A stretch of DNA of 38,394 nucleotides, from positions 1 through 38,394 of the forward strand of contig BJHB01000001.1 of the NCBI GenBank assembly GCA_014191415.1, in the 5' to 3' direction. How positions within the stretch are numbered: the first letter of the stretch is position 1; the number at the start of each line of letters is the position of its first letter. Made by a program: the position numbers and the translations under genes. This document shows, piece after piece, positions 3,182 to 13,862 of this stretch. The notes beneath the pieces were generated by a model, which was not told the DNA's origin, did no database searches, and saw only the letters and a list, made by a program, of their open reading frames with translations. This DNA is from Chloroflexota bacterium. GTDB lineage: Bacteria > Chloroflexota > UBA11872 > UBA12225.

Positions 3182-3251
3182 TGTCTCCTCGTCGCATCAC
3201 GATCAGCGTGAAGCGCGTGGTGAGGGTACCCGGCATCCGGACAGGCGAGAC

Positions 3252-3284
3252 AAAAAAATCCGGGTTCCACATACTGGAACCCGG
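3252..3284 (-). terminator. intrinsic terminator after the YVTN gene
   Basis: Perfect 10-bp stem (3260-3269 / 3275-3284, CCGGGTTCCA...TGGAACCCGG) with a 5-nt loop. Followed on the minus strand by U7 (plus-strand A7 at 3252-3258). Confidence 0.85.
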
Positions 3285-3312: not shown

Positions 3313-4590
3313 TCAGTCGCGTGTTGGAATGGTCCGGGCCACCCGGCGTCGCACCAAAGCGAGAACCAGTCCAAAGCCAATACCGGCACCGGCATAGGGG
3401 AGGTAGGTGAGTGGGTCGGGTCCGGCCCAAACCGATCCGTCACCGGTATTCGGCATGCTCTTCGGCAGGACCGATGGCCCCGAAGCACCCGTGCCTCGTG
3501 AAACCGCTTCCGAAGCACCCCCCACCACCGCACCCGACGGGGGCTTTGAACCCTGTGCCTGTGGTGCCGGTCCGGCGGGACGCGTTGCCGGAACCATCTG
3601 GACTGGTGCTACCGCAATCGCGATTGGTCGCGAGCCGACATTCACGATCTTGGACTGTTCCAGACGAGCCATGTTGATCACCGAGACGGTGTTGTCCTGG
3701 TTGTTCGCCACATACCCGAAAGCACCGTCCGGTCCAATCGCGATACCCACCGGTCGCTTGCCAACCGCAATCGTCGCAACCGCCTTCCGTGAAGCCGGAT
3801 CGACGACCGTGACATCATTCGAGATGCTGTTGCTGACGAAAATCCGCCCATCGGGCGCAATCGTCAACCCGAGCGGGGTCAGCCCAACGGGTACCGACGC
3901 GGCAATCTTTCCAGAAGCGACTTCGACGATCGCCAGTGAATTTGTCTCAGGAACAACGGCGTAGAGGGTGCCACCGTCGGACGTCAGTGCCATGGCAACA
4001 ACTGGATTACCCATTGGGATTGGAGCACCGACACGGTCGCCATCGTCAACCGGATAGACGTTGGAATTGCCTTCGAGTGCGACGTAGGCCCGGTTGCCTG
4101 ACCGGTTCGCAACGAGGGCGATCGGCTTGCCGGGAACCTGAACGGCCTTCACCCGGGCACCCACCGCGTCTATGGTCACGATCTCACTACCTGGACCCTC
4201 GGCGACCATTGAAAATGTCGCATCGGCCGGAGCCACGACCGCTTCAGGTGCCTTGCCAACCCGCGTCGTGTTCGAAACCTGATAGTAGTCGCGGTCAATC
4301 GCCGAGACCGTCCCATTGCCACGATTGGCCACGAACGCGATACGTCCGTCCGGCGTAACGGCAACCCCACGAGGCGCAGGACCAACGGGCACGGTCACAA
4401 GGACCGTATTGCCGACATGTTCGATGACCGAGACAGAACCCGATCCTTCATTGGCCACATAGACCGTGCCAACGCCATTCGCTCCTGCCGGCAAGGCCGG
4501 GAGACCAGCCGCTGCCAGGCCGGCAACTGCAGCCAGCACCATTCCGGCACGCGTGATCTGTGCCCGCACAAAGCGTCCGTTTCGCGCCAC
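3313..4590 (-). CDS. secreted YVTN-type beta-propeller repeat protein with C-terminal sortase sorting signal
   Basis: N-terminal signal-like segment (MVLAAVAGLAAAGLPALPAGA). At least 5 repeats of the pattern P.G.A..PDG...YVAN...N.VSVID. C-terminus is MPNTG (3442-3456), then a hydrophobic stretch (AGAGIGFGLVLALV), then RRRVAR. GTG start with GGAGGAAG upstream. Confidence 0.8.
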   Translation of the reverse strand: MARNGRFVRAQITRAGMVLAAVAGLAAAGLPALPAGANGVGTVYVANEGSGSVSVIEHVGNTVLVTVPVGPAPRGVAVTPDGRIAFVANRGNGTVSAIDRDYYQVSNTTRVGKAPEAVVAPADATFSMVAEGPGSEIVTIDAVGARVKAVQVPGKPIALVANRSGNRAYVALEGNSNVYPVDDGDRVGAPIPMGNPVVAMALTSDGGTLYAVVPETNSLAIVEVASGKIAASVPVGLTPLGLTIAPDGRIFVSNSISNDVTVVDPASRKAVATIAVGKRPVGIAIGPDGAFGYVANNQDNTVSVINMARLEQSKIVNVGSRPIAIAVAPVQMVPATRPAGPAPQAQGSKPPSGAVVGGASEAVSRGTGASGPSVLPKSMPNTGDGSVWAGPDPLTYLPYAGAGIGFGLVLALVRRRVARTIPTRD

Positions 4591-4636
4591 GGTCTTCCTC
4601 CACCGATGAACCGAATGAGCGGGTCACCGAGCTACT

Positions 4637-4993
4637 TCAGGATACCTGCGAAAGCAATGCACTCAAAGGTGCGTTGGGATCGCCGGTATCTATTGGAGCG
4701 GGCGACCCAGTCGCACGCGCCTGTTGGGCATCAAGTTCGTACAAGAACACCAGAAGTTCGGCAATCGCCGTGTACAAGGCTGGCGGTATTGCCTGACCGA
4801 CCTCGAGATGAGAAAGGGCCATGGCGAGTGCCGGATCATGCTCGACAGGAACACCATTCGCCTCGGCCATCGCCACGATTTCGTCGGCAAGGAACCCCCG
4901 ACCGGACGCGGCAATCACCGGGGCCTCGGCGCGACCATTCGAACCCGGAGTCCACGGTAGCCCTCCGCGCAACGCAACCGCGACTTTTCTCAT
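4637..4993 (-). CDS. free-standing FlhB C-terminal-domain-like protein (EscU/YscU/HrcU family, YlqH-like)
   Basis: 118 aa matching the FlhB C-terminal fold pattern: KVAVAL....APVIAASGRGFLADEIVAMAEANGVPVEHDPALAMAL...GQAIPPALYTAIAELLVFLYELD. No transmembrane domain and no NPTH autocleavage motif. Confidence 0.85.
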   Translation of the reverse strand: MRKVAVALRGGLPWTPGSNGRAEAPVIAASGRGFLADEIVAMAEANGVPVEHDPALAMALSHLEVGQAIPPALYTAIAELLVFLYELDAQQARATGSPAPIDTGDPNAPLSALLSQVS

Positions 4994-5089
4994 TGAATCG
5001 CTGTCTTACTCATCCTATGGTCGGCAGAAACGTGAACCTCTGCAGTGGCATCAGGCCTCGCCACGCACATTCCGGAAACTCGCCTTCAC

Positions 5090-7285
5090 TTACAAGCCCA
5101 TGTCAACCCGGCGGACCACGGCACGTCCGGCATCAGACGGCGCAACCACGAGCGGCCGATAGTCCAGTCCTTCCACGGAAAAGCCTGCACCTCGAAGCCG
5201 GTCAAGCAAGCCATCACCATTCTGTTGCAGAAGTGCGTAGGTGTCCTCCCGATCGGCAGTCAACCGGCAGCGCAAGCTAGTGCCAATGATTCGGATGTCG
5301 GCACCGACGCGACCGAGAGATTCCATATCGAGACGCATCCGGGCGTGCAATCCCGTACTCGACTCTTCCGGTCCATCCTGCCGACGCCCGCCATCCCGCC
5401 AAACTGCCAACTCAAGCGTAGTCAACTGTCCAGCGAATGCCAACGGAATGGAAAAATTCAGCGCATCACCCGGAGCTGGGATCGGGATATTGGTCGGAAA
5501 CGCAGCCGGAGTGCCATCTGGTCGCACGCCAGCGGTGGTGGAGGCCGGCGTGCCTGCGGTGGTGCCCGCCGGAGATTGCCCAGTCGATGGTTGGGCATCC
5601 CAGCCACCACGCGACAGCGTCGCCGAGTTTCCGAGTTGCTGGTATTCCAGCCGGTCATGAAGGACACGGGCAAGCATCGCCGCGGGCGTGCCTCCTCCAC
5701 GGTCCGGGGTCCCCGCAGTCTGCCCCGCAAGTGTCTGCGGGTTAGGTGGCGGACTTGCCATCGTTGAGGACGTCGGCCCCGGCGCCGTCGGCAAGCTCGA
5801 AGCGCCACTGCCCCCAAGCATCGTCAGCAGGGCACCAAGCACCGTCCGCGCATCCGCACCCGCGGTTGCCCATGTCCCAACACCGATCGGGATTGCACCC
5901 ATCATCGCGATTGGCAAGGGTGGCAACGCGCCTGGCACCGGTATTGCCGGAACACCGGTTGCGGAGATGCCAATCTGCAGTGGGGGCGGTGTTGCCTGAC
6001 CGACTGTCGATGCCGTGCGCGTACCGCCCCCAATCGAACCCGTGGCTCCCTCCACGGTACCGACTGACCCAACCTGCACCCCGCCAGACCCAACCACCGA
6101 TGTCGCACCTGTGCTCAACGATGGGGCAGGTAGCGGACCCGCTTGCGAATCCCCCGCCGGCAAACCGGTCGGAAGCGTGGCCGGTGCAACCGATCCCGTT
6201 GCGACCGCCGCACTCGAACCATTGGCACCTGCCCCGGTAGCAACCGCCTCACTCGCCCCTGACGAATCGACCGCCATCGCAATTAACCGGGCCAGACGCG
6301 CCTCCGGTGCACCCTGCAACACCGATACAACCCGTTGCAGTTCGGATCCCGTGGGCGACTGCACCACCATCGACGCAAGCAGGCGCATCAGCGCGCCTCG
6401 AGTTGTCTCACCGGGCACACCGCCGAGAGTGCCGGTAGCCACCTGACCGGGCAACGTTCCGGGCGTTGCACTTCCGGAAGACCCTCGTGAACCGCCACGC
6501 GAGCCTTCAGTTGCACCATCCAAGGAATAGTCAAGCGCGCCAGGCGGTGCACTGTCTATCGCGACGATAAGTTCTCGGAAGAGGTCTCCCATCGGGGCCG
6601 CAACCGCGCCAGACGCCCCCGCCCCACGTGCCAACGAAGCACTTCGCGCCGTAACCGGGATCCCGCGCAGCATGGCATCGACCGCGCCGCGGGCGTTTGT
6701 CAGTTCCTGGCCACTGTCGCGCGCCACCACAGCCCGCAGCGCCACGATCGTTTCGCGCGTCAGGGGTTGACCGCGTTCGACGAGCGCAGTGACAACCGCC
6801 CGGGTCGCCGGCGTGTCGGGCAGGTCGAGCGCCCGAAGGACCGCACTGGGATCGAGCGGCGCCGTAGGGGTGCGGGCAGGCGACCCACCCCCCTCCACCA
6901 ACCTCAACACGAGACGCTCAGCCGATACCGTGGAGACAGATAGGTTGACTACCTGGCCCTCGTGCAGTCCATCTGGAACCTCGGCCGCGACCCGCTGGCC
7001 ATCCATGAGCAAGAGGGCGCGGCCCGCCGCTGCATCTGTCACAAGGACCTGCGCAGAGATCTGCTGACCCACCCGAAGGTTCTGGAATGGAGATGCGCCG
7101 GCACCATTCAGGCCTGTCCCGGCAATCGGGGGGATCCAAAGGACGGCGGGCGAAGAAGCACTGATTGCGCCGACCCCGCCGACCAAACCAGGTGCGGATG
7201 CCGTGCCCGAACCGACAGACACCCCGCCGCTACCGAGGCCGGGGGTCGTCCCGGACAACCCCCGGGAGGAACCCGTGGAACTCAT
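5090..7285 (-). CDS. FliK-like protein (second hook-length-control paralog), Gly/Ala/Ser/Thr/Pro-rich
   Basis: The C-terminal ~100 aa resemble the Flg_hook domain (FSIPLAFAGQLTTLELAVWRDG...LHARMRLDMESLGRVGADIRIIGTSLRCRLTADREDTYALLQQNGDGLLDRLRGAGFSVEGLD). Long low-complexity centre. ATG start without an obvious SD. Confidence 0.65.
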   Translation of the reverse strand: MSSTGSSRGLSGTTPGLGSGGVSVGSGTASAPGLVGGVGAISASSPAVLWIPPIAGTGLNGAGASPFQNLRVGQQISAQVLVTDAAAGRALLLMDGQRVAAEVPDGLHEGQVVNLSVSTVSAERLVLRLVEGGGSPARTPTAPLDPSAVLRALDLPDTPATRAVVTALVERGQPLTRETIVALRAVVARDSGQELTNARGAVDAMLRGIPVTARSASLARGAGASGAVAAPMGDLFRELIVAIDSAPPGALDYSLDGATEGSRGGSRGSSGSATPGTLPGQVATGTLGGVPGETTRGALMRLLASMVVQSPTGSELQRVVSVLQGAPEARLARLIAMAVDSSGASEAVATGAGANGSSAAVATGSVAPATLPTGLPAGDSQAGPLPAPSLSTGATSVVGSGGVQVGSVGTVEGATGSIGGGTRTASTVGQATPPPLQIGISATGVPAIPVPGALPPLPIAMMGAIPIGVGTWATAGADARTVLGALLTMLGGSGASSLPTAPGPTSSTMASPPPNPQTLAGQTAGTPDRGGGTPAAMLARVLHDRLEYQQLGNSATLSRGGWDAQPSTGQSPAGTTAGTPASTTAGVRPDGTPAAFPTNIPIPAPGDALNFSIPLAFAGQLTTLELAVWRDGGRRQDGPEESSTGLHARMRLDMESLGRVGADIRIIGTSLRCRLTADREDTYALLQQNGDGLLDRLRGAGFSVEGLDYRPLVVAPSDAGRAVVRRVDMGL

Positions 7286-7405
7286 GGCGCCACGTCACGA
7301 TCTGTGCGCCGCACCTGTGACGGACGCACAACCTCAGGGATTGCCAACGAGAGCCGCGAGTTTGATTCCAACCACGAATGTAATCGAGTCATGATTGCCA
7401 TGACC

Positions 7406-8122
7406 TCACTTGCGCAAGGCTCGGACGACCACTCGCGAGTCGTATCGCCGAGAAACCGGATTCCACTTGCCGCCGCAGGTGATAAGCGTCAATCCGTAGG
7501 CGACGATAGGTTCAAACACAACCTTCGGCGCAGCCCCGTCTGCCGGAAACTCTCGATGCCACTCAACGTCGTACTTGTGTTCCACACCATCCGCCCCGCG
7601 AATGATCACCGGATCCCCAGACTTGGCCGAGGCGAGTTTGTTGAACACACCCGGCGCCCCCTGCCAGTCAAGATGCCCGGCCAGGATCGAGTTTCCCCGT
7701 AGCCCCGGGCGCGGGCTGTACTCAAACCACCCGATCTCCCCCGCGCGCTTTGGCACGTCCATCGAACCGTCATTCGTCAGACCAACCGCCACGACCGGCG
7801 CATCAACGCCGATCGACGGGATTGCCATGTACAGGGGCAACTCAAGGTGATCTATCGTCTTCGCCTTGGCGGTACTCGACCACGTCTTGATGCCAGGCAC
7901 CGGTGTCGGCGCGGGGGCACTCGCAGTCTGGGTGGCTGGAGCCTTCCGCGACCAAGGCAGGCCATCTCGAACAACCAGCACGCTACCCGCACCGAGAAGC
8001 GCTGCAAAACCCGCCGATCCGCCGACTAGGGCACGGCGTGTCCGCTTGTCATCCCATCGGGACGGCGGAGGCGTGGGTGTCGTCTGTTGGTCGGTCATTG
8101 CCATGGATGGCCCACGCCGCAT
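7406..8122 (-). CDS. membrane-anchored sortase (class E/F-like transpeptidase)
   Basis: Candidate catalytic residues: His in ILAGHLD, TLITC motif in LTLITCGG, Arg in SRVVVRALR. N-terminal TM anchor (ALVGGSAGFAALLGAGSVLVV). The ORF-track TTG start at 8206 lies inside the flgE terminator U-tract. In-frame ATGs at 8122, 8104 and 8098 are more likely, but none has a clear SD. Confidence 0.8.
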   Translation of the reverse strand: MRRGPSMAMTDQQTTPTPPPSRWDDKRTRRALVGGSAGFAALLGAGSVLVVRDGLPWSRKAPATQTASAPAPTPVPGIKTWSSTAKAKTIDHLELPLYMAIPSIGVDAPVVAVGLTNDGSMDVPKRAGEIGWFEYSPRPGLRGNSILAGHLDWQGAPGVFNKLASAKSGDPVIIRGADGVEHKYDVEWHREFPADGAAPKVVFEPIVAYGLTLITCGGKWNPVSRRYDSRVVVRALRK

Positions 8123-8203
8123 GACGCCATGCGGTTGAACCCTTTCCACAAGTATCGGGTGCAATCTCAGGGTCTGAAGTGGCGGAGCCCTTGTTGAAGG
8201 CAC

Positions 8204-8245
8204 CAAAAGCCGACGGGCGCCACCTCCGAGGAGATGGCGCCCGTC
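8204..8245 (-). terminator. intrinsic terminator after flgE
   Basis: Perfect 11-bp stem (8212-8222 GACGGGCGCCA / 8235-8245 TGGCGCCCGTC) with a 12-nt loop. On the minus strand it is followed, after 3 nt, by UUUU (plus-strand A4 at 8205-8208). Confidence 0.65.
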
Positions 8246-8289: not shown

Positions 8290-9999
8290 CTACCGCTTGA
8301 GGTTCACGAGGTCCTGAAGCATTTCGTCGGACGTCGTGATGATGCGGCTGTTGGCTTGGAAGCCACGCTCGGCGCGGATCATGTCGGTGAACTGCACCGA
8401 GAGGTCGACGTTCGACAACTCGAGCTGACCACCGTTGATCTGGCCACGCGATCCGGCACCCGGGACACCGACCTGCGGGATGCCCGAGTTCGCGGATTCC
8501 GACATGAGGTTCTGGCTGACAAGCGAGAGGCCGCTTGGGTTCGCGAAGGTGGCGAGGGCGATCTGGCCGAGGGCCTCCTGCACACCATTGGAATACGAAC
8601 CGGTGATCACCCCGTTGGAACCGACCGTGAAGGAGGTCAGGGTGCCCGTCGGGTGCCCGTCATTCTCCACCGCCGAAACGGTGTTGCCATCCTGCAACTG
8701 GGTCATCCGGGTGAAGTCGAGCAGAAGCTGCTGGCCCTGCGCCTGACCGTTGGCGAAGTTCAGGGTGACGCGCGACCCCGTCAGATCAGTAGCCGACACT
8801 GGTGCCGTTGCCCCGGCCACGGTTGAGGTCGTAGCCGCCTGGAACTTGCCACTCGGGTCGAAGGAAACGAACCCGAATGCCTGTCCGGCCGTCGCGTCAG
8901 CCTTGAGGTTGGTACCGGCGTCAAGGTTGGCAACGGTCCACTTCCAGGTGTTTGAGCCGACCGCCGGGGTGACGCCGGTCGCTGTTGGCACCTGCTTCTG
9001 GAATTTGACCGTGAGCTCGTGAGCCATGCCTAGGGTGTCGTAGGCGACGATCGAGGTGGTCATGGACTCAAGACCGGTCGAGGCACGTCCCTTGAGTGCA
9101 GCGCCCAGTTCGAGGTTCGAGCTGGGGGAGGAACCGAAACTCAACGCCTTGGCAGCCTTGAAGACGAGACCGCCTTCAGCCGAGACGCTTGCCGAGTCGG
9201 AAGCGGTCACCTGGATCACATCCGTCTCGCCACCGGCGGTCAATGCGGCGTTGACTGCCGCCGCCACTGCCGTCGCCAAGTCGGCGATGGTCGACGCATT
9301 CTTGGTGAGCGCGGTCGAAATGGTCGCGTTGTAGGTCTTTCCACCATAGGTGAAAGTCAGCGCATCGGTGGCGGTCGTTGCGAACGAGATCGCACTTGCA
9401 ACCGTGGAACTCTCAACGACGCCGGACGAAACGAGGTCGGTCGATGACCCGTTCAGGTTCCCGTTGAAGGAGACCATCGAAGAAGCCTTCGCATTGACAC
9501 CCGCACCGAGCGGGATGGTCAGCGGGGCCGACGGAGGCATCGCCGAGTTGATGACCTTCTGACCCGAGGCATTCGTCTCAGCCACCCAGCCGTTGACACG
9601 AAGACCCGTAGAAGGTGAGATCAGCGCACCGGTGCTATCAAGATCGAACGCACCGTCACGGCTGTAGAACTTGCGGTAGCCGTCGGTCATGATGAAGTAG
9701 CCGTCACCGGAGATGGCCATGTCGGTCAGCTTGGAGGTGTTGCTCAGGACACCCTGGGTGTTGAGCTTGTCCACACCGGAGATGGCCATGCCGAGCCCGA
9801 TCTGGATGCTGTCCTGTCCACCGGAGCCGATGGCCCCAGGGATCGAACCGCGGATGGTCTGGGCGAGCAACGTCTGGAACGTGACACGGCTGGACTTGAA
9901 GCCAGTGGTGTTGACGTTGGCGATGTTGTTGGAGATGACGTCCATCATGGTCTGATGGTTCTTGAGACCACTGATGGCTGAGTTCATTGCGCGCAGCAT
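8290..9999 (-). CDS. flgE: flagellar hook protein FlgE
   Basis: N-terminal rod/hook motif MLRAMNSAISGLKNHQTMMDVISNNIANVNTTGFK. C-terminal GGQLELSNVDLSVQFTDMIRAERGFQANSRIITTSDEMLQDLVNLKR. Large Ala/Thr/Ser-rich central domain (569 aa). Confidence 0.95.
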   Translation of the reverse strand: MLRAMNSAISGLKNHQTMMDVISNNIANVNTTGFKSSRVTFQTLLAQTIRGSIPGAIGSGGQDSIQIGLGMAISGVDKLNTQGVLSNTSKLTDMAISGDGYFIMTDGYRKFYSRDGAFDLDSTGALISPSTGLRVNGWVAETNASGQKVINSAMPPSAPLTIPLGAGVNAKASSMVSFNGNLNGSSTDLVSSGVVESSTVASAISFATTATDALTFTYGGKTYNATISTALTKNASTIADLATAVAAAVNAALTAGGETDVIQVTASDSASVSAEGGLVFKAAKALSFGSSPSSNLELGAALKGRASTGLESMTTSIVAYDTLGMAHELTVKFQKQVPTATGVTPAVGSNTWKWTVANLDAGTNLKADATAGQAFGFVSFDPSGKFQAATTSTVAGATAPVSATDLTGSRVTLNFANGQAQGQQLLLDFTRMTQLQDGNTVSAVENDGHPTGTLTSFTVGSNGVITGSYSNGVQEALGQIALATFANPSGLSLVSQNLMSESANSGIPQVGVPGAGSRGQINGGQLELSNVDLSVQFTDMIRAERGFQANSRIITTSDEMLQDLVNLKR

Positions 10000-10187: not shown

Positions 10188-10694
10188 TCAGGCAGTTGGC
10201 GCATCCTTGCCACCGGCAATCACCACACTGTCGATCTGGGTGAAGACGCTGTCGGACATGCGGTCCGCCCCAACGGCCGTGATGACCGTCCGGTTCTTCA
10301 CACTTACGACGAATGCGAGATCGTCGAGCAGGATGAGCGATTCCTTGCCTCCTTTAAGGCCAGCCTTGTCGACCGCGGCGGCCAGTTTGGCGAGTGACTC
10401 CGGTCCAAGTTCGACCGACGCCTGTGCCAACCGTTGCTGTGCGTGAGCCGAGAACCGAACCTGCGACACCGGTGGGACTTCCGGAATGGCGGGAATGGAC
10501 GCGGGAACACCCATCGGCAGCACCGATGGAACAGCTAGGCTTTCCTGGAGCACCTGGTCGAACGCAAGGCCGATTTCCCCCCCGGGTTGCACCGGGCGAG
10601 CCGCAGGGGCACGCTCTACCGGGGCGTTTCCCCGGCTTCGCGCAATGCCCAGTAGGCCTGCGTTCGCGTTGTAATCCGTCATGGTTCTTTGCAC
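10188..10694 (-). CDS. flagellar operon protein (TIGR02530-like, typically between flgD and flgE)
   Basis: C-terminal half VRFSAHAQQRLAQASVELGPESLAKLAAAVDKAGLKGGKESLILLDDLAFVVSVKNRTVITAV matches the conserved pattern of this family. Position between flgD and flgE fits. Start uncertain (GTG 10694 or ATG 10682). Confidence 0.7.
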   Translation of the reverse strand: MQRTMTDYNANAGLLGIARSRGNAPVERAPAARPVQPGGEIGLAFDQVLQESLAVPSVLPMGVPASIPAIPEVPPVSQVRFSAHAQQRLAQASVELGPESLAKLAAAVDKAGLKGGKESLILLDDLAFVVSVKNRTVITAVGADRMSDSVFTQIDSVVIAGGKDAPTA

Positions 10695-10740: not shown

Positions 10741-11325
10741 CTACCCGATTGGCGCGGTGCCCTGTGTCGTGGTCGTCGTGCCGTTGGATGACGACGAGCT
10801 TCCCGTTCCTGAGACGGTGGCTGGTTCGCCCGGCATGAGAATCCTGGACACATCGCTGAGTGCCACCTCTTCGGTGCCAATGCGAAGCATCGGCTTGCCG
10901 CTGACCATGGTGACAGCTCGCACCTCGCCGGTGATGACGCCCTCAGCGCCAAATGCCTGAACTTGGCGACCGAGCAGGAGATTGGCATCAGTCATTTGCT
11001 GCGCTGTTGCGAGCTGCTGGATGCCCTTGTTGACCTGCTGCATCTGCTCGAGGCTGTTGAATTGCGCCAACTGGGCAATGAACTCCTTGTCCTCCATGGG
11101 CTTCATGGGATCTTGGTTGCCCATCTGAGCGAGGAGAAGTTTCATGAAATCGTCTTTGCCTAGACCGTTGGCTGTGCCATCGAGGGATTGCTTGGCCTTG
11201 GCTGCCGAGGTTGCGGCAGTCGAGGGGAGGCCGAGCTTGGCGCGCGTCGCGTCGTCAAGCAGTTTCGGCTTCGCCACAGTCCCAAGACCGGACCCGTTCA
11301 GCATTGAAGAGATTGGAGAGGGCAT
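10741..11325 (-). CDS. flgD: flagellar hook assembly/capping protein FlgD
   Basis: FlgD signature KDDFMKLLLAQMGNQDPMKPMEDKEFIAQLAQFNSLEQMQQVN. Start moved to ATG 11325, which has AAGGAG 6 nt upstream. The ORF-track start 11370 would overlap fliK. Confidence 0.9.
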   Translation of the reverse strand: MPSPISSMLNGSGLGTVAKPKLLDDATRAKLGLPSTAATSAAKAKQSLDGTANGLGKDDFMKLLLAQMGNQDPMKPMEDKEFIAQLAQFNSLEQMQQVNKGIQQLATAQQMTDANLLLGRQVQAFGAEGVITGEVRAVTMVSGKPMLRIGTEEVALSDVSRILMPGEPATVSGTGSSSSSNGTTTTTQGTAPIG

Positions 11326-11353
11326 CGGCGCTCCTTGGTTTCTGGTTGCCCGG

Positions 11354-13621
11354 TTAGTCCGGACGACCAATGGTTCCCGGGTTTGTCACGGTTGCTGACG
11401 CCAACGCCCGGCGTCCGCCATACGCTCCAAGTCCCGCACTGACCCGCGATTGCACCCCGAGGGCACGCGTCACGCTTGAAATCGATTCCCCGGACGCACG
11501 AAGGTTCTCGCTTCCGGCATCGGTTGCGGTCGGCGCTGCCAGCGGTGCCACCACTGGTTGCACGTCGAACGGTTGCCCGTTCTGATCGAAGTAGACCCTG
11601 CCAAAGAAACTGTTCGCCCACTCGCGCCCGCCGTCGCCGGCTTCGGATTGAGGTCCAGCCTGATCGGACCCCCTCTGGGTTCCCTGTTCTCCCTGCCGAC
11701 TGGGCTGCCTGCCCGCCTGGTCATCAGTCCGCTCGCGCAGACCCACATCCATGCGCTCCAGTCTGAGTCCGGCCTCGCCAAGCGAAGCACGCAACTGGGG
11801 CAGGGCCGTCTCAAGCGCCTTGCGTGCCTCGGGGGTCGAGGTGGTGAGATCCACACCGATCGATCCCTGGCGCAGCGTAAGGCGAATGGTCAGTGGTCCG
11901 AGATTTTCCGGCGAAAGCCGGAGAGTGAATTGGCGTGCCTCGCCGGCACCAGTCAGACGCGCGACACGCACGAGGACTGGGGCGACCTGATCATGCAACT
12001 CATCACCGAACGAAGTGCCCGGTGTGGTGCTGGTCGCGGACGCGACATCTGCCAGATTTGAACGCGCCGCCGACTGCATTCCTGAGCCGGTAGCGCCTGC
12101 TGAACCGGTTGTGCCAGAACCAGTCACGGGAGCAGCCGGGGCCGCTTGGACGTCATCGCCATCAACTGCCGACGCCTGAGCGCCTGCACCTGATGCGCCT
12201 GCCGCACCCGAAACAGCTGAGACCATCCCTGCCTGCAAGGTCGGTACGCCCTCTGCATCGCCCGAGGCAAGCCCCGGATCGGCGATACCAGACGCATCGA
12301 CACCCGCTACCCGTTGGCCCGTCCCTGATGACGCAACTGGCGCCACGATTGGCACCACCGTCGCAACACCTGCCTCAGCCACGGCAATGACGGCCGCGCC
12401 TGACGCATCGGAGAGTGCCGCCGTTGCCGCCACCGGAGTGGCGGTGACCACGTCGGCAACCTCAGCCTGAGCCTGAGCCGCTGCAACCGAAGCCTGAGCG
12501 GGCGCGGTTGCCACTGGGGCCTGCGCCTCCTCGTCAGCCGCGGTTGCCAAGGCCGATGCCAAAGCGCCAAAGACACCTGCACCATCCAGTGACACGCCAC
12601 CTGTCGTCAGGTCCGTCGGCACGATGGCCGGGGCGGAACCGTCGACGGTCAACGTGGCACCCATCTGGCGCAGCGCGACGAGCAACCCGGCAAGGGACGT
12701 CTGATCGGAAGGAGTACCGGTCAGCGTGGGCATCTCCGGAATCGTGCCGTCGAAGGCACTCGTCAGGAGCATTCCCAGTTCAACCGTTCCCGATCCGCCA
12801 GTCATTGCCTCGGCGACCTGCCCCAAAAGAACCTGGATGGCATTCGACAAGGCAGGGGCCACTTCGGCGATGGCCCCGTCAATCGCGGCCGGATTGCCGG
12901 TAGCCACGGCCTGTTCAATGCGGTGGGACGCCGCGTCAACCGCGCCGGCAGCATTCGCCGGTGTCATGACGGGAGATCCACCACTTGAACGAGACTCGGA
13001 ACCACCCGACGAAACGGTCGGATCTGGGCGCGCTGACGCCTGCACCGAGGCCTCTCCTGCGCTCCGCGCCGCTGCGTTATCGGCAAGGCGATCCGCCGCG
13101 TCGGCCTTGACCTGCCGGGCGCGTTCAAGCGCACGGGAGACCCGACCAACCGACCTCATCGCACTCGCGACGTCACGTCGGAGCGAACTACTTCGAGACC
13201 GCGACGCATCCGACCCTTGGGAGCCGGAAGCTGGACCCGCCTGGGGTATTCCCTCATTCGAGGGCAATTCGTGGGCGCTCGAACTGCCAACGGTTGCCTG
13301 TGGCGCCAGACCCGCCACGACGGCATCCCGGGTTTCCGACTGGCCTCGGCCGACCCGGGAAGAGACGATGCGCGCAAGCACGGAAGCAAAGCGCGGCCGA
13401 TTCCCGGCGACCGAACCCAATCCACTACTTGGCGAACCTGTCGCGTCGCCACTTGCGGTCGCCGACTGCACACCACCCGGGCCAACGCCCGAGGCACCGC
13501 GCACACCTGAAACCGCCTGCAACGCACGAGCGGACAACGCGCTCCCTCCCAACCCCGAGAGCGCAAGACTCTCATGGGCTGCCGAAGCACCCTTGCCCAA
13601 CGATGGGACAGACCTGCCCAT
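11354..13621 (-). CDS. fliK: flagellar hook-length control protein FliK
   Basis: Flg_hook domain FTLRLSPENLGPLTIRLTLRQGSIGVDLTTSTPEARKALETALPQLRASLGEAGLRLERMDV. Ala/Ser/Gly-rich N-terminal ruler region. Start set to ATG 13621 with AAGGAG 6 nt upstream (ccgaaAAGGAGcgaatATG). The 13759 extension is Arg/Trp/Cys-rich. Confidence 0.85.
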   Translation of the reverse strand: MGRSVPSLGKGASAAHESLALSGLGGSALSARALQAVSGVRGASGVGPGGVQSATASGDATGSPSSGLGSVAGNRPRFASVLARIVSSRVGRGQSETRDAVVAGLAPQATVGSSSAHELPSNEGIPQAGPASGSQGSDASRSRSSSLRRDVASAMRSVGRVSRALERARQVKADAADRLADNAAARSAGEASVQASARPDPTVSSGGSESRSSGGSPVMTPANAAGAVDAASHRIEQAVATGNPAAIDGAIAEVAPALSNAIQVLLGQVAEAMTGGSGTVELGMLLTSAFDGTIPEMPTLTGTPSDQTSLAGLLVALRQMGATLTVDGSAPAIVPTDLTTGGVSLDGAGVFGALASALATAADEEAQAPVATAPAQASVAAAQAQAEVADVVTATPVAATAALSDASGAAVIAVAEAGVATVVPIVAPVASSGTGQRVAGVDASGIADPGLASGDAEGVPTLQAGMVSAVSGAAGASGAGAQASAVDGDDVQAAPAAPVTGSGTTGSAGATGSGMQSAARSNLADVASATSTTPGTSFGDELHDQVAPVLVRVARLTGAGEARQFTLRLSPENLGPLTIRLTLRQGSIGVDLTTSTPEARKALETALPQLRASLGEAGLRLERMDVGLRERTDDQAGRQPSRQGEQGTQRGSDQAGPQSEAGDGGREWANSFFGRVYFDQNGQPFDVQPVVAPLAAPTATDAGSENLRASGESISSVTRALGVQSRVSAGLGAYGGRRALASATVTNPGTIGRPD

Positions 13622-13862
13622 ATTCGCTCCTTTTCGGATGCATGGCAATCGCAACGCCAGCGGCGCCACGGCTTGCCGGAACCAACCGACCATTTCCCAG
13701 GATGACCTGGCCGGTCTTCGACCCACGCATCTGTCCCTGTCCGCGTGAATCGCCCCCACAACCTATGGGGATCAGAACCGCTCAACCCGCAATCCCGGAC
13801 GTGCCGCGATTGCTCCGGAGTGACCCAACTCTGATCCCGATAGACTCGTGTGCTTCTATTCA

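Follow-up and report, generated by a model that had tools for sequence, protein, structure and literature searches.

Background and related systems

Dedicated pairs of a sortase and its substrate are familiar from Gram-positive bacteria; the class B sortase SrtB with IsdC is one such pair, and others involve sortases of class E and class F in Actinobacteria. The genes fliK2 and flhX form a single operon in Pseudomonas putida, FliA-dependent and of unknown role (bioRxiv 10.1101/2021.08.29.457346), and a seven-bladed YVTN beta-propeller is found in a surface-layer (S-layer) protein of the archaeon Methanosarcina mazei (1L0Q). Parts of all three kinds meet in the locus described here, a unit of four genes, in the order sortase, fliK2, flhX and YVTN propeller, on the minus strand and 3' of the hairpin that follows the flagellar hook gene flgE. 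It lies in a 38,394-nucleotide stretch of DNA (the window, which is contig C1) from the metagenome-assembled genome (MAG) of an uncultured lake bacterium of the Chloroflexota (3.66 Mb, 62% G+C, 83% completeness), the nearest public relatives of which are MAGs from lakes. The unit is probably a late flagellar operon, in which the sortase would fix the Sec-exported propeller covalently to peptidoglycan and the propeller would serve the flagellum of a cell that has no P and L rings.

The fliK2-flhX pair resembles that of P. putida, and FlhX (HP1575) of Helicobacter pylori, in that a FliK-like protein of which only the C-terminal Flg_hook domain is recognizable is followed by a small FlhB C-domain protein; in further likeness to the P. 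putida operon, the pair stands behind a sigma-28-like motif. Unlike the Pseudomonas and Helicobacter pair, it is flanked by a sortase and a propeller with an LPxTG-type signal, in a phylum of single-membrane bacteria; no such partners have been reported for its counterparts. The likeness to the dedicated Gram-positive pairs lies in a membrane-anchored His-Cys-Arg sortase encoded beside a secreted protein that ends in a pentapeptide, a hydrophobic segment and a basic tail. The differences are that the score of the sortase against class F, 119 bits, falls short of the cut-off of 166, that the pentapeptide is MPNTG and that the setting is a flagellar operon, not an iron-uptake, pilus or sporulation locus. 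With the M. mazei protein the propeller shares the seven-bladed fold, and both are extracellular (by prediction, in the present case) and non-enzymatic as far as is known. In contrast, the archaeal protein is an S-layer subunit with PKD domains, and the propeller described here is single, with a disordered linker and a sortase signal.

That flgH and flgI are missing from Chloroflexota is on record (PMC10284905; bioRxiv 10.1101/366732). The P and L rings (FlgI, FlgH), the H and T rings and the FlgY E-ring of diderm bacteria (PMC13023049) offer a possible functional analogy only, as Sec-dependent envelope accessories encoded in flagellar clusters. Unlike what a homologue would show, these rings and other diderm accessories have no relation of sequence or fold to the propeller. 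The parts of the unit are thus of known kinds (a dedicated sortase-substrate pair, a fliK2-flhX pair, a YVTN propeller), and it is their conserved combination in a flagellar operon that is new in print: the literature searched holds no description of a sortase-propeller-fliK2-flhX arrangement, in agreement with an initial annotation of the window, which had called the arrangement undescribed.

The four-gene unit and its products

The features of the unit are the following.

3250-3284, minus strand: intrinsic terminator, a 10-bp stem (3260-3284) and then U7 (z = -5.0)
3313-4590, minus strand: predicted secreted seven-bladed YVTN beta-propeller, 425 amino acids (TIGR02276, AlphaFold2, Foldseek)
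3334-3402, minus strand: hydrophobic segment LPYAGAGIGFGLVLALV and then basic tail RRRVAR of the propeller
3442-3456, minus strand: MPNTG pentapeptide of the propeller, the predicted sortase cleavage motif (LPNTG in sister genera)
4637-4993, minus strand: flhX-type protein, 118 amino acids, corresponding to the C-terminal domain of FlhB (Pfam Bac_export_2)
5090-7285, minus strand: fliK2, a second FliK-like protein, 731 amino acids, with a C-terminal T3S4/Flg_hook domain
7406-8104, minus strand: predicted membrane-anchored class-F-like sortase, its open reading frame (ORF) extending to TTG 8206 (Pfam Sortase, NCBIfam class_F_sortase)
8153-8179, minus strand: promoter-like CTTCAG-N15-CCGATA with a sigma-28/FliA-like -10 element, 48 nucleotides upstream of ATG 8104
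8212-8245, minus strand: 15-bp GC-rich hairpin 3' of flgE, a terminator or an attenuator with a weak U tract (folding)

Every sequence element that the initial annotation had picked out is present on the minus strand, at or close to the place given for it, and the observation is confirmed throughout; Pfam and NCBIfam profile matches and the ORF coordinates bear out the four-gene unit between the flgE hairpin and the terminator as real.

The propeller gene product matches the YVTN repeat model TIGR02276 with 138.6 bits (cut-off 27.85) and five repeats. In its AlphaFold2 model residues 39-333 make up 28 strands, arranged as seven four-stranded blades, with a predicted local distance difference test score (pLDDT) above 90, and residues 1-38 (the signal peptide) and 334-425 (the linker and the sorting signal) are of low confidence and unstructured. 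The best Foldseek match is 1L0Q (E 2e-25, root-mean-square deviation 1.9 Å over ~300 residues, 30% identity). The N-terminus has basic residues and then a hydrophobic stretch that ends AGA|NG; the C-terminus reads ...LPKSMPNTG-DGSVWAGPDPLTY-LPYAGAGIGFGLVLALV-RRRVAR-TIPTRD, with 42 residues after MPNTG. The protein accordingly has all that makes up the sorting-signal pattern, namely signal peptide, pentapeptide, hydrophobic segment and basic tail, with M instead of L at position 1; none of the NCBIfam LPXTG-anchor models matches it at E <= 0.01.

The sortase ORF (7406-8206) matches Pfam Sortase (PF04203) with 71 bits (gathering cut-off 26.6; 9.6e-20). Its start is more likely ATG 8104 or ATG 8122 than TTG 8206, because the TTG abuts the hairpin and orthologues begin near MAMTD. 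An N-terminal hydrophobic segment (RRALVGGSAGFAALLGAGSV) would anchor the enzyme in the membrane. The active-site motif is TLITC (in LTLITCGG), and in an alignment of 10 Chloroflexota sortases H144, C210 (in LTLITCGG) and R224 are invariant. Among NCBIfam classes F fits best (NF033748, 119 bits, which is below the curated cut-off of 166), with class E at 30 bits; a sequence search of the Protein Data Bank with the sortase gave no match at E <= 1e-3. A housekeeping sortase (of the class A or E type) is one enzyme that serves many dispersed LPXTG or LAXTG substrates. The window enzyme had been called housekeeping-type, a designation that has to be given up: the class-specific profiles put F first, and the assembly (83% complete) holds two sortases, each beside a substrate of its own. 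By profile and gene neighbourhood the enzyme is a dedicated, class-F-like sortase rather than a housekeeping one of class A or E.

Between sortase and propeller lie the two paralogues of export-switch proteins. FliK2 matches Pfam Flg_hook (PF02120) over residues 643-708 (48.1 bits, cut-off 29.8; 1e-12). The flhX-type protein matches Bac_export_2 (54 bits, cut-off 24.4; 2e-14) over only positions 269-334 of the 335 in the profile, and TIGR00789 (flhB_rel) with 67 bits, below the cut-off of 117. It begins at the position that follows the FlhB autocleavage site; the full-length flhB of the source genome sits elsewhere, on contig C152.

Two sortases, two sorting signals

The 3.66-Mb assembly contains only two sortase genes, and a six-frame ORF scan of all of it finds only two C-termini made of [LM]PxTG, a hydrophobic segment and a basic tail, each of them beside one of the sortase genes. 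With only two signals and two enzymes genome-wide, and each signal adjacent to an enzyme, the pairing goes beyond chance; this is the pattern of dedicated pairs, and it makes the window sortase and propeller a plausible enzyme and substrate, as had been proposed. The accompanying claim that the propeller is the only visible substrate stands within the window but not genome-wide, since an MPATG protein with its own sortase is found on contig C3. There (C3:30430-32425, minus strand) the second sortase gene lies directly downstream of the gene for a secreted protein of ~190 amino acids with MPATG, a transmembrane segment and RRRVIASRG; the stop codon of the latter is 70 nucleotides upstream of the sortase gene. 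The MPATG protein has no Pfam or NCBIfam match. This second pair, MPATG included, is kept in two genera (G004 and G002 of genus g1, G012 of genus g4), and one of these genomes, G002, is non-flagellate.

The methionine at position 1 had suggested an MPxTG-type specificity of the window sortase, and this does not hold up. Orthologous propellers of sister genera carry LPNTG (G012 and G007, 66-68% identical; G006, 44% identical), and they adjoin, in the same four-gene unit, sortases that are 52-58% identical to the one in the window. Remoter propellers have LPKTG (G084, G117) or LPNTG (G271). Because the orthologues carry LPNTG or LPKTG, the methionine of the propeller signal is best described as an L-to-M change at the level of the genus, confined to the source genus. 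Since the second substrate family keeps MPATG across two genera, M would be an accepted position-1 residue in the family, and no special property of the flagellar-operon sortase. The string MPXTG is absent from the literature searched. Sortase biology would thereby be extended in two ways, by a class-F-like branch in Chloroflexota and by a family in which the sorting motif can begin with M.

Several other C-termini deserve mention. Just upstream of the second pair of G012, a paralogue of the MPATG protein (L047, G012:C62, 441-1034, plus strand) ends ...AAAPNTNDSARTISITG, followed by a hydrophobic stretch and RLRQRQRQRR; its odd APNTN-type tail may be a further sorting-signal variant. A 595-amino-acid ORF of the source genome that ends at position 12952 of contig C29 (plus strand) has the C-terminus ...APGWLEPVTGAGIGLVLAGSLAVTAWVLRRIDVR, in which TG runs directly into the hydrophobic segment; such a tail may belong to a sorting system that uses no sortase, for example a PEP-CTERM-like one. 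The tail of a 232-amino-acid ORF beside flagellin genes on contig C81 (RPRTS, a transmembrane segment and basic residues) was judged not to be a sorting signal.

Hairpin, terminator and promoter motif

The hairpin 3' of flgE is strong (-40.7 kcal/mol for a 67-nucleotide stretch, z = -5.1) with only four U after the stem (GGCUUUUGG), and its equivalent is present in G012. At the other end of the unit the terminator stem (3260-3284) is followed by AUUUUUUU. Between the flgE hairpin and the start of the sortase gene lies CTTCAG-N15-CCGATA. The consensus of sigma-28 (FliA) promoters is TAAA-N15-GCCGATAA, and the CCGATA element and the 15-nucleotide spacing of the motif fit it; CTTCAG does not match TAAA.

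The exact motif was looked for in every fetched locus that reaches the upstream region of the sortase gene. Six species from two genera have it (G000, G001, G003 and G004 of g1; G007 and G012 of g4), each with a single copy at the same position and none elsewhere in the locus; G007 keeps it despite having a different upstream neighbour. The degenerate form CTYMWG-N15/16-CCGATA has 10 matches in the source genome, a count that is not above a rough chance estimate of ~9, so that only placement and conservation carry weight. In four of the 10 cases the gene directly behind the motif is the sortase gene, flgM, flgL or a flagellin gene:

C32:3857-3884: CTYMWG-N15/16-CCGATA site
C32:7065-7091: CTYMWG-N15/16-CCGATA site
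C81, minus strand, upstream of the flagellin gene ending at 3422: CTYMWG-N15/16-CCGATA site
window 8153-8179: the site ahead of the sortase gene

On this in-silico evidence the unit would belong to the late flagellar regulon. As a candidate FliA-type consensus, CTYMWG-N15/16-CCGATA could serve to delimit that regulon in the lineage. The promoter-like motif also stands ahead of a gene for a 525-amino-acid DnaJ-domain protein (C13:3033, plus strand), and in G112 a 695-amino-acid DnaJ-domain protein is encoded between a flgE-like gene and the propeller gene (L044:6477-8564); the DnaJ-domain protein may be another lineage-specific flagellar-cluster gene product.

Conservation within the family

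Four genera in the family of the source genome (f1) share the order sortase-fliK2-flhX-propeller: g1 (G001, G003, G004), g4 (G012, G007, G013), g3 (G006) and g2 (G005). Wherever the contig shows it, flgE is directly upstream of the unit, apart from G007, in which an operon on the opposite strand (L026, C1:10455-14095), encoding a TAXI-TRAP solute-binding protein, a small protein and a fused permease, is inserted between flgE and the sortase gene. The four genes are still together there, and since the unit is intact despite the insertion, it appears to be autonomous and not the tail of the flgE transcript.

Four members of the family (G002, G008, G009, G010) have no flgE match. In three of them (G002, G008, G009) close orthologues of the sortase and the propeller are missing as well. 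In the fourth, G010, flhX and the propeller gene are gone, but the sortase gene persists next to what is left of the fliK2 N-terminus; no flgE or flhB match was found in this genome. Its decayed flagellar locus (L029, C1:9786-17685) also holds a gene for a 307-amino-acid LPATG protein, which is upstream of the sortase gene, together with genes for a long coiled-coil protein and a flagellin-like protein.

Linkage in other families of the phylum

Loci were compared by coordinates and gene reading across 401 Chloroflexota genomes. Homologous class-F-like sortases are present in 116 of them and FlhB-type matches in 52. Beyond f1, sortases are found in flagellar clusters of four families (f18, f33, f44, f53); all the flagellar-cluster sortases examined score best as class F, with 105-139 bits, in every case below the cut-off of 166. 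Propellers of the same clade with LPxTG signals occur in two of these families (f18, f33), at different positions. The arrangements are as follows.

G117 (f18): fliI, SLT/M23, sortase, fliK, flgD, two flgE, a glycosyltransferase family 2-tetratricopeptide repeat (GT2-TPR) gene, fliK2, flhX, propeller (...ALPKTG)
G084 (f18): a free-standing fliK2-flhX-propeller triad, the propeller with LPKTG, a transmembrane segment and a basic tail
G271 and G112 (f33): fliK, flgD, a flgE-like gene, then the propeller gene on the other strand, then sortase-cheW (LPNTG read in G271)
G307 (f44): fliK, flgD, flgE, fliK2, flhX, then a convergent sortase gene
G171 (same genus as G307): sortase and flhX-type matches adjacent by coordinates
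G235 and G257 (f53): sortase-motA-motB

In G117 a small AbrB/MazE-like gene directly follows the propeller gene, in the region L040, C459:19380-19750, that takes in the end of the propeller. The genes upstream of the G235 sortase gene were considered as substrates and rejected, being ParB- or methylase-like. The initial annotation had connected the module with flagellar genes, and that connection proves to be conserved: the four-gene unit is syntenic in four genera of f1, and related arrangements recur in the four further families.

A maximum-likelihood tree places 11 flagellar-linked propellers on one side of a branch (Shimodaira-Hasegawa approximate likelihood-ratio test, SH-aLRT, 93), apart from 44 generic YVTN proteins that were taken from the best matches of a search of 5.8 billion proteins. 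In the flagellar-linked propellers that were read, the signal peptide is followed at once by a shared sequence, ANG[IV]G[ST]xYVxN. Two propellers among the best phylum-wide matches, those of G095 and G163, were rejected as flagellar, their neighbours being a kinase, or a sigma/anti-sigma pair and a glycosyltransferase. In view of these contexts, similarity alone does not define the clade of flagellar propellers; the tree and the N-terminal motif do. A propeller homologue with a precomputed FlaG match (P0112) was also set aside, its locus being of the extracellular contractile injection system (eCIS) type and not flagellar.

What the module may do

The function that we propose for the module is read from its genomic context only, and cleavage, wall anchoring, dependence on FliA and a flagellar role are all predictions. 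The operon (sortase, fliK2, flhX, propeller) would be read from its own sigma-28 (FliA)-type promoter. The propeller would be exported by Sec through its N-terminal signal peptide, and the hydrophobic segment and basic tail at its C-terminus would keep it in the membrane. There the class-F-like sortase, with its His-Cys-Arg triad and TLITC motif, would cut MPNTG between T and G and join the threonine to a peptidoglycan precursor. In the resulting protein a flexible linker of ~60 residues would tie the seven-bladed YVTN propeller covalently to the wall. The propeller would be made together with FliK2 and FlhX, the pair of export-switch paralogues, and would work with the flagellum in a bacterium that has a single membrane and lacks P and L rings, most likely as an accessory of the envelope placed around the rod and hook or next to them.

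A number of observations weigh against reading the unit as a late flagellar operon with a wall-anchored propeller. The intergenic gaps within it are 46-120 nucleotides, with no translational coupling, a strong hairpin parts it from flgE, and its promoter motif has CTTCAG as the -35 part, where the textbook element is TAAA. The YVTN propellers form a very large family of generic proteins, and three of the four best phylum-wide matches (G095, G072, G163) were not seen beside flagellar genes, the context having been inspected for G095 and G163 and that of G072 judged by contig alone. In the G117 propeller only eight residues follow LPKTG, with no membrane segment; a toxin-antitoxin module may have cut the gene short on inserting there, or the assembly may be wrong at this point. 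The MAGs, in addition, are fragmented and not independent of one another in phylogeny. Some of these same facts (the hairpin, and the related propellers in non-flagellar contexts) lend themselves to another explanation, in which sortase and propeller make up an ordinary surface-protein cassette, S-layer-like or adhesive, merely adjacent to or co-regulated with motility genes and contributing no part to the flagellum. The best structural match, an archaeal S-layer YVTN domain, would be at home in such a cassette, as would the occurrence of class-F-like sortases in far more Chloroflexota genomes than have FlhB-type matches. So, too, would the persistence of the sortase in G010 without flagella and beside a different, LPATG protein, which implies that the enzyme is not strictly propeller-specific. 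It is difficult, however, to reconcile an ordinary cassette with linkage to flagellar genes in at least five families with differing local gene orders, which argues against inherited chance adjacency, with a fliK2-flhX-propeller triad that moves as a unit (G084), with a flagellar-type promoter motif conserved ahead of the sortase gene, or with the loss of the intact module from non-flagellate relatives. We regard the cassette as unlikely.

The sortase might instead be a flagellar-cluster enzyme whose main client is some other wall-anchored protein; the propeller would then be an additional client peculiar to the lineage, and its role at the surface an unrelated one. In f44, in which a propeller was not detected, and in f53, for which no propeller search was made, the sortase of the flagellar cluster must serve another protein, and this counts both for such a client and against the late-operon reading. 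Places in which that client might have been found in the source genome have not yielded one: no LPXTG protein is encoded in the fliA-flgF-flgG operon on contig C32, neither of the two RskA_C-domain proteins carries a sorting signal, and the whole-genome scan turned up no third sorting signal (in an assembly that is 83% complete). Moreover, in f1 and f33 the constant neighbour of the sortase is the propeller and no other protein. The propeller is the only sortase client that can be seen, as a predicted substrate, within the flagellar context of this lineage, and a different main client seems very improbable.

If the unit is a late flagellar operon, the propeller could go further and be a structural part of the basal body, either as a collar or bushing in the peptidoglycan that replaces the P and L rings or as a wall landmark that FliK2 and FlhX read in timing an export switch (for example, from rod to hook) where there is no outer membrane. 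We put this forward as a speculation that is more apt to be wrong than right by a considerable measure. How the rod passes through the wall, and is supported in it, in single-membrane bacteria that have no P and L rings is poorly understood, as is the signal by which such cells know the rod to be through the wall. One conserved module containing a sortase, a putative wall-anchored propeller and FliK2-FlhX provides concrete candidate genes for both questions, and it is the first hint from genomic context as to the role of fliK2-flhX. To our knowledge, covalent attachment to the wall by a sortase has been described for no flagellar part; a wall-anchored propeller serving the flagellum would be the first sortase-dependent flagellar component.

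Neighbouring genes in the window

The flagellar hook block that precedes the unit is also on the minus strand, in the order fliK, flgD, 'Flagellar_put' gene and flgE.

11354-13759, minus strand: canonical fliK, upstream of flgD
10741-11370, minus strand: flgD
10188-10694, minus strand: 'Flagellar_put' gene
8290-9999, minus strand: flgE, hook protein, the upstream neighbour of the four-gene unit and outside it (Pfam FlgE_D2, Flg_bbr_C, Flg_bb_rod, LlgE_F_G_D1)

On the other side of the unit, the ORF at 1073-1636 on the plus strand is one of an antisense pair. Clear orthologues of it adjoin the module in G006 (L027:3-323) and G010 (L029:8396-9418), and the plus-strand reading would for that reason be the real gene of the two.

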